Source: an uncultured Clostridium sp.
Lineage (GTDB): Bacteria; Bacillota; Clostridia; TANB77; CAG-508
NCBI GenBank assembly: GCA_947569365.1
Contig: CANOSM010000004.1
Coordinates: forward strand, 37,261 to 77,260
Reading direction: 5' to 3'
DNA: 40,000 nucleotides
Positions within the stretch are counted from its first letter, which is position 1; every line of letters starts with the position of its first letter. A program made the translations under genes and the position numbers. Below, in pieces: positions 21,185 to 27,356 of the stretch. The notes below the pieces were generated by a model. It ran no database searches. It saw only the letters and a program-made list of their open reading frames with translations, and was not told the DNA's origin.

Positions 21185-21604
21185 ATGAAAAAATTGTTAT
21201 ATTATATGGTTGCAATACTTATACTAATATTATTACTTGCAGTTCCATCTTATGCATCAACACAAATTGCTACAGAAAAAGGTGTTATGGAAACAGACAA
21301 TGCAACAAAATTCTCACAAATGAAACAAGGATTTGAAGCAAAGTTTGCTCAATACTCAGATAAATATGGTTCTAAAGTTTATGGAGGAGTAGCTTTAGTA
21401 TTAGATACAATAAGAATATATAGTATACCATTTTGCTTTGTAGGTATTGCAGTAGGTGCAATATATCAATATGTAATAGGTATAAGAAAAATGGATGTAA
21501 GAGATAAAGGATTTAATTTACTAATTGCTTTTGTTACAATTTTAGTAATATGTCAAGTATTACCATTAGTATTTGCTATAATTACTAAAGGATGGGTATT
21601 ATAA
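21185..21604 (+). CDS. small secreted/membrane protein (signal peptide plus two C-terminal TM helices)
   Basis: Signal-peptide-like MKKLLYYMVAILILILLLAVPSYAS, a ~45-aa soluble segment, then two hydrophobic helices. GGGGGA SD. Translationally close to the next gene. Confidence 0.5.
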   Translation: MKKLLYYMVAILILILLLAVPSYASTQIATEKGVMETDNATKFSQMKQGFEAKFAQYSDKYGSKVYGGVALVLDTIRIYSIPFCFVGIAVGAIYQYVIGIRKMDVRDKGFNLLIAFVTILVICQVLPLVFAIITKGWVL

Positions 21605-21634
21605 TACGAGAAGACGTTTGGAGGTTTTTAACAA

Positions 21635-24600
21635 ATGAAAATTTTATTTGCAGTAAGTAACGAAAATGTTTCTGACGCAATAGTTAAAAGTTATCAAAAA
21701 AATTATAATGATAGTATTACGTATAAAAATGTATTTTACTTTAATGCAATAATTAAAGAAATTCAAAGAGATAAAGAATATGATAGAATAATTATTAGTG
21801 AAGATTTAGAACCATTTGCTAATAATAATTATGATGCTATAGATAAATTTATTTTTGAGAGATTAGATGCAATAGTTTCAGAAATAAAAGATTTTGCAGA
21901 GAAAAGAATACCTATAATATTAATATGTACTGATAGAAGAACAAAAACAAGTCCAATGATTACAAAAATATTTAACATTGGAATTTATGATGCAGTTATT
22001 GGTTCAGATAGAAAAATAGAAAATGTTTGTAGATTAATAAAGGAACCAAGGACAAAAGAAGATGCAAAACAATATTATAAAATAGAAAGCGGAGATGAAA
22101 ACAATTCTTCTGAAGTTGATATAAGTGAAGAAGAAGTTCAAAATATAGTTAATTATTATAAAAAATTAGGAAAAAATGAGGAAAGATATACAGATAGTTT
22201 TAATAATATAGCTACACAATATACAGATGCACAACTTAAAATAATTATAAGATATTTACCTATAAATGTTAAAGCTATTTTAGAATCAGAATGTGCAAAA
22301 TATCAAGAATTAGTAACATTTGATAATCCAGCGACAGTAAAAGAACAAAAAGAAAAAGAGAGACTAAGAAGAAAAAAACAAAGAGAAAAAGAAGAAGAAG
22401 AGGAAAGAATAAGAGAACAACTAGCACAAAAGAAGAAACGTGAACAAATAGAAAAGAAAAAACAGGCAAATAAATACATTCCTAATAATTCGAAAAATAA
22501 CAATCAATCAGAAAATAAAACTAGAGTGGCAACAGGAATTGGAATATTAGATAATAAAATTAATAGACCTTCAATGCAGGGGAATGTTGTAATTCCTAAT
22601 GCTATAAATACTAAACAAGCTAAAAAGGTATTATCAGACGATGAAATGAATATTCAACCTAGAAAAGTAATAAATAATGAAAATAAAACTGAAAATGTAG
22701 TAAAACCTAAGGTAGTTAATAATGAGCAAGTAGTAGAAAATAGAGAAATAAAGAAACCTGTAGAAAATAGTAAAGAGAAAATTCAAACAGTTAGTTTACC
22801 GGGATTTGAAAATATAGAAACTGACAACATACAAGTAAATGTTAGTAATGATATAGAAGAAGTAGATATAATACCAGAAGAAGTTGTAGTAAAAGAGAAA
22901 AAGGAGGATAACCCAATAAATACTGTGAAAACTCCTGAAAATGATAATAATATAGAAAAAGATATAGAAGTAGAACCAGTAAAAAAAGGAAGAGGAAGAC
23001 CAAGAAAAACTCCTCTACCAGAAGAAAATAAGATACCTATGGTTCAAGAAGTAAAAACAGATAATAATATAAAGACTGTTGAAGATAATTCAAATGATGT
23101 AAATATAATAAGTAATTTAGAAGTAGAACCAACAAAAAGAGGAAGAGGCAGACCAAGAATTACACCTATAGAAGAAGTAGTTGAAAAAACAAAAGGAAAA
23201 AGAGGCAGACCAAGAAAAACTCCTCTGCCAGAAGATAATATATCTATGGTTAAAGATATAGAAATAGATAATGATATAAAAACTACTGAAAATAATTCAA
23301 ATAGTATAGATAATGCAATAAATAATTTAGAAGTAGAACCAGTAAAAAGAGGAAGAGGTAGACCAAGAATTACACCTATAGGAGAAGTAGTTGAAAAGCC
23401 AAAAGGAAAAAGAGGCAGACCAAGAAAAACTCCTCTGCCAGAAGAAAATAATAAGCTTCAAGTAGAAGAAGTAGGAAAAGATAACTTTATTGATATAGAG
23501 GAAGTTCCTAAAAAAGTAAATAATGAGTCAGATAATCAAGTAAGTAACATATTACCAGAAGTAGAAAAAGATGATATTACATCTACATTTAGTTCTTTTG
23601 ATGCTTTTGAAGTTCCAGAAGGAAAGACAGAAGAAACAACCAGTTCAACAATTTTACCAGGTTTTGATGAAGATTTTGAAGAATTGGATAAAATAATAAA
23701 TAATGATAAACAAGAAGATACTATTGAAAACCAGAATTATAATGTATTAGATGATAACTTTGATAATATAGATGATGATAATGAAGATATTCAAGATGAT
23801 ATAAGTGTGGAAGATGAGCAAAGCGAAGAAACTTCAACATTACCAGGTATGATGGATATAGAAGATTTCGAAGACGAAGATAATGTAGAAGAAGATAATA
23901 TTAATGAAAACTTAGAAGAACAATCAGAAGAAGATATAGATTCTTACACAAAACAGGATGATTTACAAGATTTAAATGATTTAAATAATGGAGTCACAAG
24001 TAGTAATAATGTAGTAAATTCATTACCAGGTTTTGAAGACTTAGATGATATGGTAGAAGATGAAGAAGAAAGTAATATAAGTCAAGAAGAAGGGAGCTTA
24101 TTACCAGGTTTTGAAAATGACGAAATTAATTCAAGTGTGGTGGCTGCTACATCATATAGAGAATCTGATTTAGAGAGAACAGCTAGTATAAGGAAATTAG
24201 AAGAAAATAGAGTTTATTCTACTGGTTCATTACAAAGTGCACTTACTCCAGATAAGAAAATAGTAGCTTTTATAGGAACGAGTAAAAATGGAACTTCTTT
24301 TATTGTAAATAATTTAGCAAGTTTATTTTCATCAATAGGTATAAAAACAGCAATATTAGATATGACCAAAAATAGAAATGCATATTATATTTATACAAAT
24401 AATGATGAAAAATTGAGACAAGTTTCTTATGATGCGATAGATAAACTAGAAAATGGAGTTGCAGAAGGAATTAAATCTGATAGAAATTTAGATGTTTATA
24501 CTGCTGTTCCAAATGAAGAAAAAGATTTTTCAAATGCAGAAGCAATATTAACAACTTTAATAAAAAATGAATCACTTGTACTCATTGATTGTGATTATGA

Positions 24601-25102
24601 TACACCTTTAGGATATTTCGCAAATGCACAAGAAATATATTTAGTACAATCAATGGATATACTTACGATTCAGCCACTTACAGCTTTTTTAAGGGAGTTA
24701 AAAGCAAATGGAATATTAGATCAAGAAAAACTAAGAGTTGTTGTAAATAAGGAAATAAAAGTAAGAGGATTAACTTCTAAAACAATAATAGGAGGAATGT
24801 CTTTTTATAATGATCCAAGTATGTCGTATATGACAGAATTATTTAATAAAGATAAAATAAAAGCTTGTACTTTGCCTTTTGAAGATGCTATTTATTCTAA
24901 ATATTTAGAAACACTAGTAAATTGTAATGTTAGCATAAGTGGATATTCAAAAAATTTTATGAATAGTTTAAAAATTTTAGGAAATATGGTATATCCTTTA
25001 TTAAGTAAACAAACATATGTAAAAAATGGACCAGACTATACAAAAAGTAATTTTTCAACAGAAATGAATAATACTTTAAATCAGATGAGAAAGAAATATT
25101 AA
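21635..25102 (+). CDS. 1155-aa protein: pseudo-receiver N-domain, K/E coiled coil, five AT-hooks, acidic linker with LPGF motifs, degenerate ParA/MinD (TadZ/CpaE-like) C-domain
   Basis: N-terminus has a CheY-like beta/alpha pattern without the DD pair (KILFAVSNEN...RIIISEDLEP...IILICTD). Five xRGRPRxTP motifs. The C-terminus has KKIVAFIGTSKNGTSFIVNNLA...GIKTAILDM...LVLIDCDYD, i.e. a deviant Walker A lacking the GK[ST] lysine, plus a Walker B-like strand. Confidence 0.7.
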   Translation: MKILFAVSNENVSDAIVKSYQKNYNDSITYKNVFYFNAIIKEIQRDKEYDRIIISEDLEPFANNNYDAIDKFIFERLDAIVSEIKDFAEKRIPIILICTDRRTKTSPMITKIFNIGIYDAVIGSDRKIENVCRLIKEPRTKEDAKQYYKIESGDENNSSEVDISEEEVQNIVNYYKKLGKNEERYTDSFNNIATQYTDAQLKIIIRYLPINVKAILESECAKYQELVTFDNPATVKEQKEKERLRRKKQREKEEEEERIREQLAQKKKREQIEKKKQANKYIPNNSKNNNQSENKTRVATGIGILDNKINRPSMQGNVVIPNAINTKQAKKVLSDDEMNIQPRKVINNENKTENVVKPKVVNNEQVVENREIKKPVENSKEKIQTVSLPGFENIETDNIQVNVSNDIEEVDIIPEEVVVKEKKEDNPINTVKTPENDNNIEKDIEVEPVKKGRGRPRKTPLPEENKIPMVQEVKTDNNIKTVEDNSNDVNIISNLEVEPTKRGRGRPRITPIEEVVEKTKGKRGRPRKTPLPEDNISMVKDIEIDNDIKTTENNSNSIDNAINNLEVEPVKRGRGRPRITPIGEVVEKPKGKRGRPRKTPLPEENNKLQVEEVGKDNFIDIEEVPKKVNNESDNQVSNILPEVEKDDITSTFSSFDAFEVPEGKTEETTSSTILPGFDEDFEELDKIINNDKQEDTIENQNYNVLDDNFDNIDDDNEDIQDDISVEDEQSEETSTLPGMMDIEDFEDEDNVEEDNINENLEEQSEEDIDSYTKQDDLQDLNDLNNGVTSSNNVVNSLPGFEDLDDMVEDEEESNISQEEGSLLPGFENDEINSSVVAATSYRESDLERTASIRKLEENRVYSTGSLQSALTPDKKIVAFIGTSKNGTSFIVNNLASLFSSIGIKTAILDMTKNRNAYYIYTNNDEKLRQVSYDAIDKLENGVAEGIKSDRNLDVYTAVPNEEKDFSNAEAILTTLIKNESLVLIDCDYDTPLGYFANAQEIYLVQSMDILTIQPLTAFLRELKANGILDQEKLRVVVNKEIKVRGLTSKTIIGGMSFYNDPSMSYMTELFNKDKIKACTLPFEDAIYSKYLETLVNCNVSISGYSKNFMNSLKILGNMVYPLLSKQTYVKNGPDYTKSNFSTEMNNTLNQMRKKY
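22964..23449 (+). repeat. in-frame tandem repeat (units of 150, 210 and about 126 nt) encoding the AT-hook cassettes
   Basis: AATTTAGAAGTAGAACC...CCAGAAGA recurs at 23114 and 23324 (period 210 nt, about 6 mismatches in a 123-nt core by eye). The first unit at 22964 lacks the 60-nt segment that encodes the second hook. Confidence 0.9.
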
Positions 25103-25134
25103 ATATACAAAAATAGTAAAAGAGGTGGATAATT

Positions 25135-26220
25135 TTGGTCTTAATACCAATAGTTGTGCTTGTAGCAATAGTAGCAATTTTAATTTTCTATAATATAAAA
25201 ATAAAAAAACAAATAACAACTTTATCAGATATGTCTAAAAAAGTTAATAATTTAAATGTTTTACAAAACTTTATGGATATTACTGGTGAAGATATTTCAG
25301 TTGATGAAAAAATAAGAAAAGTAAATGAAATTCTTATAGAAAAGTTTGAAATAAAATATTCAACTATTGTTGTATTCAATGGAGCCGAATATATATTAAA
25401 AGCTTCAAATACAGATCAAAAATATTGGCCAAATTTAATGAACTTGCATATGGAAGATGTTTTTAAGGAAAGTATTTCTAATGCAGTTCCAAAATATATA
25501 ACAGTAGATGGAGAGGGAGAAAAACTTCCATATCAAAAATTAGATTTTGGAAGAGCTAAATCCGCAATATTTTTTCCATTATTTATAGATAATGTTTATA
25601 TTGGGTATTGGATTATTGAAAGTTCTGTAATGCATGCTTTTGATAATGTTGATATAGTATTATTAGAAGTAATTAGAGACGATATAGTAGCACTAGTAAA
25701 GACTGTTTCATATCAAGAAGCAATGGAAAGTATAGTAAGAACAGATCAATTTACAGCATTATATTCTGCAGAATATTTATATGGAAAGGCAAAGGCAAAA
25801 ATTGATTCTGAGCCAACTTCTACAGTGAGTATGTTTAGAATAACTAATATAGAAGAAATAAATAACGTATATGGAAGAGTAATGGGAAATAATATAATTA
25901 TAGAAGTTGCAAATTGGGTAAAAACTCTTATTACTTCAGACCAAATTTTTATAAGATATATGGGACCAAAATTTGTAATAGTATTTGTTGGAAAAGATAA
26001 TGACTATGCAACAGATATATTAAAAAGTATGAGAGAAGATATTGAAAGTATAGAATTAGAATCAACAAATGAAAAAGGAGAGAAGATACCTGTTAGACCT
26101 AAAGTAAATTTCGTAGTTTCAACTTATTATAAAGGTACAGGAGTTGAAAAGGTTACTAAGAAGCTAGAGGAATACTTAGATAGTGCTGATAAGCAAGAGC
26201 ATAATATTAATTATATATAA
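25135..26220 (+). CDS. membrane-anchored sensor-like protein with degenerate GGDEF domain
   Basis: TTG start after a GAGGTGG SD. N-terminal TM ([17 protein letters not shown]), a GAF-like middle region, then a GGDEF-fold pattern: [13 protein letters not shown] (D-x-LT-x-L), [17 protein letters not shown] (in place of DxDxFKxxND) and [12 protein letters not shown] (GGDEF replaced by GPKF). No RxxD I-site. Confidence 0.65.
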
Positions 26221-26237
26221 AGATAGGAGTGATGAAC

Positions 26238-26492
26238 ATGGAGAACTTTGATAAAACAATGAGCTTTAAAGTTGAAAAGGAAGATAATATAAAATCAAGA
26301 GAAATTATGAAGGAAGTATATGAAGCATTAGTAGAAAAAGGATATAATCCTATAAATCAAATTGTTGGATATATTTTGTCAGGAGATCCAACATATATAA
26401 CAAGTCATAAAAATGCAAGAAATCTAATAAGATCAGTTGAAAGAGATGAATTATTAGAGAAAATGCTAAAAAATTATATAGGATTAGAATAA
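26238..26492 (+). CDS. ireB: IreB family regulatory phosphoprotein (UPF0297/YrzL)
   Basis: [38 protein letters not shown] is the family signature. The ATG at 26238 has the best spacing from the TAGGAG SD. The listed ORF starts at GTG 26229. Confidence 0.85.
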
Positions 26493-26493
26493 T

Positions 26494-26916
26494 ATGAAAA
26501 AGAGATTGTTAGGAATAGATTATGGAGATGCAAGAGTGGGGATAGCTATATCAGATGCACTTGGAATAACTGCTCAAGGATTAAAAACTATTCATCATAA
26601 TGGAAACGATAAGATTTTATTAAAAGAACTTGATAATATATTAAATGAATATGAAATTTCTACTTTTGTTGTAGGAATGCCATATAATATGAATGGTACA
26701 AGTTCCGATAGAGTGGAAATTACAAACAAATTTATTCATAAACTTAAGTGTAAATACAATAATATACAGATAGAGACTATAGATGAAAGATTAACAACAG
26801 TTGAGGCTCATAGAACAATGAATGATTTAAATATTAATCCTCAAAATAAAAAAAATATAGTAGATACTATCTCAGCAGTATATATACTTGAAATATATAT
26901 GAATAAAATAAAATAA
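26494..26916 (+). CDS. ruvX: Holliday junction resolvase-like / pre-16S rRNA nuclease RuvX (YqgF)
   Basis: LGIDYGDARVGIAISD N-terminal motif, ...VVGMPYNMNGT...DERLTTVEA. 140 aa. Confidence 0.9.
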   Translation: MKKRLLGIDYGDARVGIAISDALGITAQGLKTIHHNGNDKILLKELDNILNEYEISTFVVGMPYNMNGTSSDRVEITNKFIHKLKCKYNNIQIETIDERLTTVEAHRTMNDLNINPQNKKNIVDTISAVYILEIYMNKIK

Positions 26917-27035
26917 TTTAGTTGCACTATTGTATAATTTAGTATATATTATATACAATATTATAAAATAAAGGATGTTTTAAGATATTAATATTTTACA
27001 AGGATTTGTAAATTTTGAAAGGAGAATATAAAAAA

Positions 27036-27356
27036 ATGGATGAAAACAAGGATTTAGAGATTGATGAGGAATTAAATAACATAATAGTATTAAATGATGA
27101 AAATGGAGATGAAGTTGAATTCGAATTTTTAGATTTAGTTGAATATGATAATGAAGAATATGTTATATTATTACCAGTAGCAGCAGAAGATGATGAAGAT
27201 TTAGGCGAGGTTGTTATATTAAAAGTTGAAGAAACAGAAAGTGAAGAAGAAGAATCTTATGTTAGCGTTGATGATGAAGAAACATTAAATAAAGTTTTTG
27301 ATATATTTAAAGATAAATTTAAAGATGAATTTAATTTTGTTGACACTGAAGAATAA
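27036..27356 (+). CDS. DUF1292 (YrzB) family acidic protein
   Basis: IVLNDENGDEVEFEFLDLVEYDNEEYVILLP...VVILKVE is the typical DUF1292 pattern. The ATG at 27036 follows an AAAGGAG SD, and the listed TTG 27015 overlaps that SD. Confidence 0.8.
   Translation: MDENKDLEIDEELNNIIVLNDENGDEVEFEFLDLVEYDNEEYVILLPVAAEDDEDLGEVVILKVEETESEEEESYVSVDDEETLNKVFDIFKDKFKDEFNFVDTEE

Follow-up and report, generated by a model that had tools for sequence, protein, structure and literature searches.

Conserved L-P-G-hydrophobic peptides in the acidic disordered linker of an AT-hook-bearing, ParA/MinD-fold protein of uncultured gut Clostridia

Linear motifs carried in multiple copies on disordered scaffolds are a central organizing principle in eukaryotes and, to our knowledge, have rarely been documented in bacteria. 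In the DPF, NPF, and DPW arrays of Eps15 and epsin, as well as in the FPPPP repeats of Listeria ActA, hydrophobic or proline-containing cores of three to five residues, placed at irregular intervals in acidic disordered sequence, provide avidity for one small folded domain. Acidic-hydrophobic peptides are also known from bacterial signaling, e.g., the N-terminal EIDAL peptide of FliM and FliY, a ligand of both CheY, which is a receiver domain, and FlhG, which is a MinD-like ATPase. The TadZ and CpaE proteins combine a receiver-like domain with a ParA/MinD-like ATPase and localize Tad pili. The W-acidic motif in the tail of WalK binds WalR at its DNA-binding domain, competing with DNA (PMC9087282), and CarD and its Stigmatella orthologue were in 2010 the only prokaryotic proteins known to carry a domain of the HMGA type (PMC2919716). 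Here, we describe P0001, a protein of 1155 amino acids (aa) encoded in a window of 40,000 nucleotides (nt) from a contig of an uncultured Clostridium sp. (CANOSM010000004.1), whose disordered linker contains five L-P-G-hydrophobic peptides; sequence comparison confirms these peptides as true copies of a selected short linear motif.

P0001 is composed of a receiver-like N-domain, a coiled coil, a disordered linker with AT-hooks and acidic motifs, and a MinD/ParA-like C-domain. The order of a receiver-like N-domain followed by a ParA/MinD-fold C-domain is shared with TadZ and CpaE (PDB 3fkq, 4myr, 4n0p). However, the 640-aa disordered insert of P0001 with its hooks and motifs has no counterpart in these proteins, the Walker A lysine is replaced (G-T-S-K-N-G-T-S) and there is no Pfam or NCBIfam match, and the gene belongs to a module ahead of ireB-ruvX-DUF1292 in a genome that lacks TadA/CpaF. 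A genome-wide search for a TadA/CpaF ATPase by PF00437 (T2SSE family) found none, the only members of this family in the genome being PilB and PilT, both encoded in the window (9555-15514). Given the lack of TadA/CpaF and the different gene context, P0001 is TadZ-like in fold order and not a TadZ by context.

The likeness to HMGA and CarD consists in the position of the RGRP AT-hooks directly beside an acidic disordered segment, within one polypeptide that is also fused to a protein-interaction domain. The partner domain of CarD binds RNA polymerase and CarG, whereas the flanks of P0001 adopt receiver and MinD/ParA folds. No sequence homology of P0001 to HMGA or CarD was detected, and we know of no L-P-G-hydrophobic core or counted motif copies in the acidic regions of the latter. 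With WalK's W-acidic motif and the EIDAL motif of FliM and FliY, P0001 has in common a short hydrophobic core set in acidic disordered sequence, which in those proteins docks on a folded signaling domain; yet they carry one motif per protein, with other cores and with neither a Pro-Gly turn nor a multi-copy array. As for the endocytic and cytoskeletal arrays, the likeness would be one of mechanism only, since the kingdom, the cores, and the partners are different. A literature search on AT-hook plus ParA-like proteins, LPGF motifs, and TadZ retrieved no paper describing this family or motif. New here are the extended consensus of the motif, its second interchangeable form, its strict coupling to AT-hooks in one clade, and the variation in copy number between 0 and 17.

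The gene and the five motif copies are located as follows:
21635-25102, + strand: gene of P0001, the putative scaffold protein, 1155 aa (from the list of open reading frames and the translation)
22790-22825, + strand: motif copy 1, VSLPGFENIETD, aa 386-397, the one copy located upstream of the hooks; L-P-G-F 100% conserved in the four closest species
23648-23689, + strand: motif copy 2, TILPGFDEDFEELD, aa 672-685; L-P-G conserved in 5 of 5 species
23834-23881, + strand: motif copy 3, STLPGMMDIEDFEDED, aa 734-749; T-L-x-G conserved, with the proline in 4 of 5 species
24017-24067, + strand: motif copy 4, NSLPGFEDLDDMVEDEE, aa 795-811, the youngest of the five, restricted to this genome and G008, its nearest relative
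24095-24133, + strand: motif copy 5, SLLPGFENDEINS, aa 821-833; L-P-G-F conserved in 5 of 5 species

A regular-expression scan of P0001 placed L-P-G-F/M at Leu 388, 674, 736, 797, and 823. These are exactly the five peptides quoted in a preliminary description of the window, which had also correctly put one copy before and four after the AT-hooks (RGRP hooks at aa 452-600) and had given a span, 22796-24121, that starts at the Leu codon of copy 1 and ends inside the last copy. The motif was then written as (S/T)-(L/I)-L-P-G-F/M; its LPG core holds, but the prefix is not uniform, the residues in question being VS, TI, ST, NS, and SL. In the 640-aa linker, the pattern [LIVM]PG[FMLIV] occurs five times against approximately 0.07 matches expected from composition, and none of 20,000 shuffled linkers contained five motifs (maximum 3). 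Of the six prolines in the acidic part (aa 641-870), four belong to motif copies, and the residues between 700 and 870, which form a contiguous and highly acidic segment, include 16.4% Glu and 15.8% Asp. Across all open reading frames of at least 70 aa in the genome (2.03 Mb), the stricter pattern [LIVM]PG[FMLIV][DE][DEN], outside which the LPGMMD copy falls, has six matches, four of them in P0001; a search of the same reading frames for further motif carriers, as would be found for a shared hub, returned none. The DNA of the copies has in common just 14-25 nt around TTACC(A/G)GG (repeat families D3, D9, and D18), as the preliminary description had indicated, and this short overlap, together with the retention of the core in homologues, upholds its proposal that the motif is maintained at the peptide level and not through recent duplication. 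In the AlphaFold2 model every copy has a predicted local distance difference test score (pLDDT) below 50 and is devoid of secondary structure.

The conservation of the motif was surveyed among the orthologues in 61 genomes of the same GTDB order, representing 5 families and 26 genera; all but one of these genomes (60/61) encode an orthologue of P0001. An exhaustive search of 1.8 billion representative proteins returned only 545 relatives, and the family is therefore narrow. Record titles point to uncultured Clostridia of the human, rabbit, ruminant, and chicken gut, with Clostridium sp. CAG:343 and Candidatus Scatovivens faecipullorum among them. In the GTDB family to which this genome belongs (f1), 22 of the 26 full-length orthologues contain between 1 and 17 linker copies of [LIVM]-P-G-[FLMIV], and 25 contain two or more RGRP hooks; neither motif nor hooks were found in the other four families (f2-f5). 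Of 150 representative relatives, 69 possess both features, 42 neither, 25 just the hooks, and 14 just the motif; fragments make up many of the proteins in the two single-feature classes. A set of 120 full-length proteins was used for comparison, comprising 81 motif- or AT-hook-bearing relatives and 39 relatives without AT-hooks. The LPG-hydrophobic core occurs 300 times in the former versus 4.7 times in shuffled sequences (an approximately 60-fold enrichment) and 0 times in the latter, so that the motif has withstood the test set for it beforehand, namely, conservation in homologues.

The consensus derived from 126 distinct instances is [T/S/I/V]-L-P-G-[F/L/M/I/V]-[E/D]-[D/N/E]-[W/L/F/I or acidic]-[D/E]. 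The residue that follows L-P across the relatives is Gly in 314 cases versus 47 for all other residues combined, and many copies read LPGLDDWD, with a Trp within the acidic setting. The linkers of the five closest species are just 34% identical, while their N-domains reach 82% and their C-domains 92%; even so, the L-P-G core is intact or almost so at four of the five copy positions, with identity up to 100%. Of the 16 genera sampled in f1, 12 or more have kept the core, while the flanks have not been kept. The number of copies per protein varies between 0 and 17, with a single copy in some species, and several species have amplified whole repeat units in tandem with periods of 14-28 aa. The spacing between copies is irregular (8-315 residues), which argues against a folded repeat domain. 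The alignments thus show a motif core under strong constraint in surroundings that drift, and the peptides share with short linear motifs a core located in disordered sequence, conservation of the core with divergence of the flanks, and gain, loss, and replacement of copies.

The linker contains a further conserved island, VVIPNAINT (aa 318-326, 22586-22612), with basic residues after it and 89% conservation among the closest species; its PVVIPSxxNT form can be recognized in 16 or more homologues belonging to several genera. A motif common to the whole order was considered and rejected, since the linkers of f2-f5 are different and contain only scattered alternating hydrophobic-acidic islands. 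In f5 (L060, L066, L072, L075) and f2 (L073, L076) the linkers are formed by a long E/R/A/K-rich helical repeat of the EAREQQELAEKARR type or by a proline-rich P-K-V-E repeat, and in f3 the linker is only about 60 aa long. Such variation among families indicates that the two folded domains tolerate very different spacers.

In many lineages the LPGF peptide is replaced or accompanied by a second form, [LIVMF]-[DN]-[L/x]-F-[DEN]-[LIVMF]. Relatives without LPG have INLFEL, IDLFDL, VNLFNL, and similar peptides at the same acidic position after the hooks. The second form has 32 matches in the 81 homologues of the motif/AT-hook group versus 1.1 in shuffled sequences, and 0 in the 39 full-length relatives without AT-hooks. 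P0001 itself includes a copy:
23591-23617, + strand: conserved island SSFDAFEVP, aa 653-661, a second-form copy (FDAFEV) that fits the pattern
In the five closest species, residues 653-659 of this island are 89% conserved and P661 is invariant. In a tree computed from the N- and C-domains, proteins with the LPG form are interspersed with those of the D-L-F form; eight proteins, P0001 included, contain both. Such a pattern is expected if both serve one site. The two forms may be variants that serve the same site, each placing a turn between a hydrophobic and an aromatic or hydrophobic residue, with acid after the latter.

The second feature of the linker is the array of AT-hooks:
22979-23443, + strand: five RGRP AT-hooks in an array spanning aa 449-603, with their cores at aa 452-600 (DNA-level repeat families D1 and D2)
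The Pfam AT_hook model scores 15.2 bits on P0001, under its cut-off of 17.4. At the DNA level the array is a long repeat, with 139-nt units (D2; 23102-23240 and 23312-23450) that are 93% identical, and it has grown through recent DNA-level duplication. The number of hooks is five in this genome, three in the sister species, and two in most relatives. All hook-bearing and motif-bearing proteins belong to one clade of the tree with a support of 100/100, corresponding to f1. One subclade of 11 proteins within that clade, including that of genome G036, has neither hooks nor motif; the linkers of this subclade (L056 in G036; P0050-P0085) are long and N/E/K-rich, with repeats such as DDDIEIEFEEE. 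Within the clade, the number of motifs is independent of the number of hooks: proteins with two hooks contain between 0 and 17 motifs, and five motifs accompany either the five hooks of P0001 or the three of its sister. Since motif number does not follow hook number, a partner in trans fits better than a one-to-one masking of hooks by motifs.

The remaining parts of P0001 were delineated from the AlphaFold2 model of the full-length protein (built with 45 orthologues), in which two domains are confident and aa 281-842 fall almost entirely below a pLDDT of 50:
21635-22318, + strand: N-terminal domain, aa 1-228, a receiver (REC) fold followed by a five-helix bundle (AlphaFold2 pLDDT 87; Foldseek)
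22328-22471, + strand: long K/E-rich helix, aa 232-279 (AlphaFold2 secondary structure)
24242-25003, + strand: ParA/MinD-fold C-domain, aa 870-1123 (AlphaFold2 pLDDT approximately 90; Foldseek)
24275-24298, + strand: degenerate Walker A, G881-T-S-K-N-G-T-S888 (translation and comparison of orthologues)
25052-25099, + strand: C-terminal amphipathic helix, aa 1140-1155 (AlphaFold2 helix 1142-1154)

Neither the whole protein nor any of its three parts had a significant family match in Pfam or NCBIfam, the sub-threshold AT_hook being the only hit, and aa 860-1155 gave zero matches even at E = 10, including to models of the ParA/MinD type (CbiA, AAA_31, ParA). The fold assignments come from structure. 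Foldseek matched the N-domain to REC domains of response regulators, NarL/RcsB, and the CpaE receiver domains 4myr and 4n0p at template modeling (TM) scores of 0.64-0.70, and the C-domain to ParA, MinD, Soj, ParF, and FlhG at TM scores of 0.65-0.74 and 13-17% identity, with 3fkq among the matches; a protein atlas concurs on the ParA/MinD fold of the latter. In the Walker A of the C-domain, the canonical lysine of GK[ST] is replaced by a near-invariant Thr, and K884, three residues earlier, is invariant across the order. Other residues invariant among orthologues are K875, G881, G886, D909, T911, D985, and D987. The C-domain is probably a pseudo-ATPase, or else uses the displaced lysine, and P0001 is most likely a non-enzymatic scaffold protein. 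The C-terminal helix has the pattern F-xxx-M-xxx-L-xx-M-xxx-Y, with a nearly invariant F1140 and a hydrophobic moment of 1.28 per residue, and is possibly a membrane-targeting helix of the MinD type, its role at the membrane being inferred only. A connection with +1 recoding at CGG was considered and rejected, since the P0001 gene contains no in-frame CGG, and the CCG-GGA of motif copy 1 is in frame.

The gene belongs to a module (21185-27356) that is syntenic across the order (loci L031-L077) and consists of genes for a small membrane protein, the scaffold, in some cases a GGDEF-domain protein, ireB, ruvX, and DUF1292. Its members adjacent to the P0001 gene are:
21185-21604, + strand: small membrane protein gene, with a signal peptide and three hydrophobic helices (from the translation); a conserved partner gene
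25135-26220, + strand: gene of a membrane-anchored GGDEF-domain protein, downstream (Pfam GGDEF, E = 7e-12)
The small membrane protein gene lies directly upstream in 38 of 45 loci, including all of those from f1, while the downstream GGDEF gene occurs in f1 and f3 only and was not found in the f2, f4, and f5 loci examined. Elsewhere in the window, a 326-aa open reading frame between pilD and pilB (10381-11361) has no Pfam match. In the rest of the genome, which has a G+C content of 25%, the SepF gene is followed directly by a DivIVA-like gene (L194:1300-2252), and the FtsA and FtsZ genes are adjacent on contig C5 (L080), the C-terminus of FtsZ being ELDIPTFLRKNNK.

The reading that we favor, and to which the comparative pattern lends about an even chance, is that the motif copies would act as multivalent docking sites for a partner supplied in trans. 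The near-invariant Pro-Gly would form a tight turn, so that the Leu and the hydrophobic residue after the turn are displayed next to an acidic patch; each copy would insert into a pocket of a folded partner that is hydrophobic inside and basic around its rim. With several copies on each chain, binding to a partner that is oligomeric or clustered would gain avidity. Since the AT-hooks would keep the chain attached to the AT-rich chromosome, the array would gather its partner at the nucleoid, or at the junction between nucleoid and membrane if the C-terminal helix and the neighboring membrane proteins anchor the scaffold. The preliminary description had likewise proposed an array of docking sites for one partner; of this proposal, the repeated protein-level motif stands, whereas docking to one partner gained no support from the complex predictions.

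Several observations weigh against docking in trans. In complex prediction, a DnaN dimer (28-row alignment) with a two-motif peptide (aa 788-838) scored 0.14 against a mark of 0.32, scores under the mark counting, according to the tool, as evidence neither for nor against binding. A single job that combined FtsA, a SepF dimer, the C-domain of P0001 itself, and the motif peptide scored 0.00 against the same mark, and the four kinds of chain in this job may have lowered its sensitivity. Nine AT-hook-bearing homologues contain neither motif form by the patterns used, some having N/Q/Y-rich sequence of low complexity in its place, and a specific docking site may therefore be dispensable. In P0045, P0057, P0071, and P0079, two AT-hooks are kept and an N/Q/Y-rich, prion-like sequence replaces the acidic motif region. 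The lack of any other motif carrier in the genome is unlike a shared hub with many clients. Finally, all of the evidence is comparative, and the organisms are uncultured.

Instead of a partner in trans, the motifs could bind the N-domain, the C-domain, or the basic DNA-binding segments of P0001 itself, either in cis or between molecules, and thereby compete with DNA or control oligomerization; we consider such self-regulation possible, if doubtful. The acidic tails of HMGA and HMGB proteins are a precedent for such competition and control, and P0001 possesses both kinds of domain, receiver and MinD-like, that bind the EIDAL peptide. The idea is also consistent with the joint presence and joint absence of motif and hooks, with the fact that AT-hooks beside an acidic region also mark HMGA and Myxococcus CarD (PMC2919716), and with the binding of WalK's W-acidic motif to the very domain through which WalR contacts DNA (PMC9087282). 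However, the full-length AlphaFold2 model docked no motif on either domain in cis, all copies remaining at a pLDDT below 50, and the complex job containing the C-domain had the null score given above, which counts neither way. No column of the N- or C-domain co-varies with the motif form (the mutual information does not exceed 0.42 bits, and the residues are mixed). Nor are motif-bearing proteins more positively charged than motif-less ones (-5.2 vs. -3.7 for the N-domain and +2.9 vs. +6.3 for the C-domain). Motif number is, moreover, unrelated to hook number. A linker of stickers and spacers, in which the motifs promote self-association, or coacervation with DNA and the basic segments, to form a nucleoid condensate that has no dedicated folded receptor, is distinctly unlikely. 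It would account for the high and variable valency (0-17 copies), for blocks of opposite charge in one chain, where a K-rich part with AT-hooks precedes a D/E-rich part, and for the homologues with prion-like sequence in place of acidic motifs; but known sticker grammars do not require anything as specific as a near-invariant Pro-Gly within a fixed core of five residues, and a single motif copy persists in some species.

Mimicry of a hub peptide, by which the scaffold would capture the beta-clamp through a likeness to its motif QL[SD]LF (or QLxLxL), or FtsA/SepF through a likeness to the C-terminal peptide of FtsZ (D-I-P-x-F-L-R/K), appears very unlikely. The second form, x-I-D-L-F, does resemble the clamp motif and fits its positions 2-5, but the Gln of that motif is absent, and LPGF has a Gly where the clamp motif has Leu at position 4. 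Similarly, the FtsZ tail of this genome, ELDIPTFLRK, shares hydrophobic-P-x-F with LPGF, but the FtsZ peptide is C-terminal and its core is followed by Leu and basic residues, whereas the LPGF copies are internal and followed by acidic ones. Both DnaN and FtsA with SepF scored under the mark in the complex predictions, which in itself counts neither way, although well-templated complexes of this sort might have been expected to score. That the motif is a functionless by-product of low-complexity expansion is hardly credible. The tandem amplification of whole units in several species (periods of 14-28 aa) and the otherwise fast evolution of the linker (34% identity) would suit such an origin; against it stand the mere 14-25 nt of DNA shared by the copies of P0001, the retention of the core but not of the flanks in most sampled genera of f1, and the 60-fold enrichment over shuffles. 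Three known types of element, i.e., a sortase signal, a phospho-threonine/FHA site, and a calcium-binding repeat, were rejected on sequence grounds, namely, a core that does not match, the internal location of the copies, and their uneven spacing. A sortase signal would consist of LPXTG with a hydrophobic helix and a basic tail after it at the C-terminus, together with an N-terminal signal peptide; here, the core is L-P-G-F and the copies are internal, with neither a signal peptide nor a following helix.

Docking on a partner in trans might, in a more far-reaching version, mean that the LPG-acidic array and its receptor form a new bacterial motif-receptor pair, by which a chromosome-bound, membrane-anchored pseudo-MinD scaffold collects, at the surface of the nucleoid, many copies of a factor of the cell cycle or the envelope; we regard this version as rather unlikely. 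If true, it would reveal in gut Clostridia a nucleoid-membrane tether or an organizer akin to nucleoid occlusion, built on a eukaryote-like plan of AT-hooks and acidic multivalency. Peptides of 12-15 residues and mutations of the L, P-G, and F positions provide an experimental handle on the partner and on the function of the three-gene module. The motif is strongly conserved, easy to recognize, and present in many uncultured gut Clostridia, and it would mark an interaction that matters to the whole lineage.

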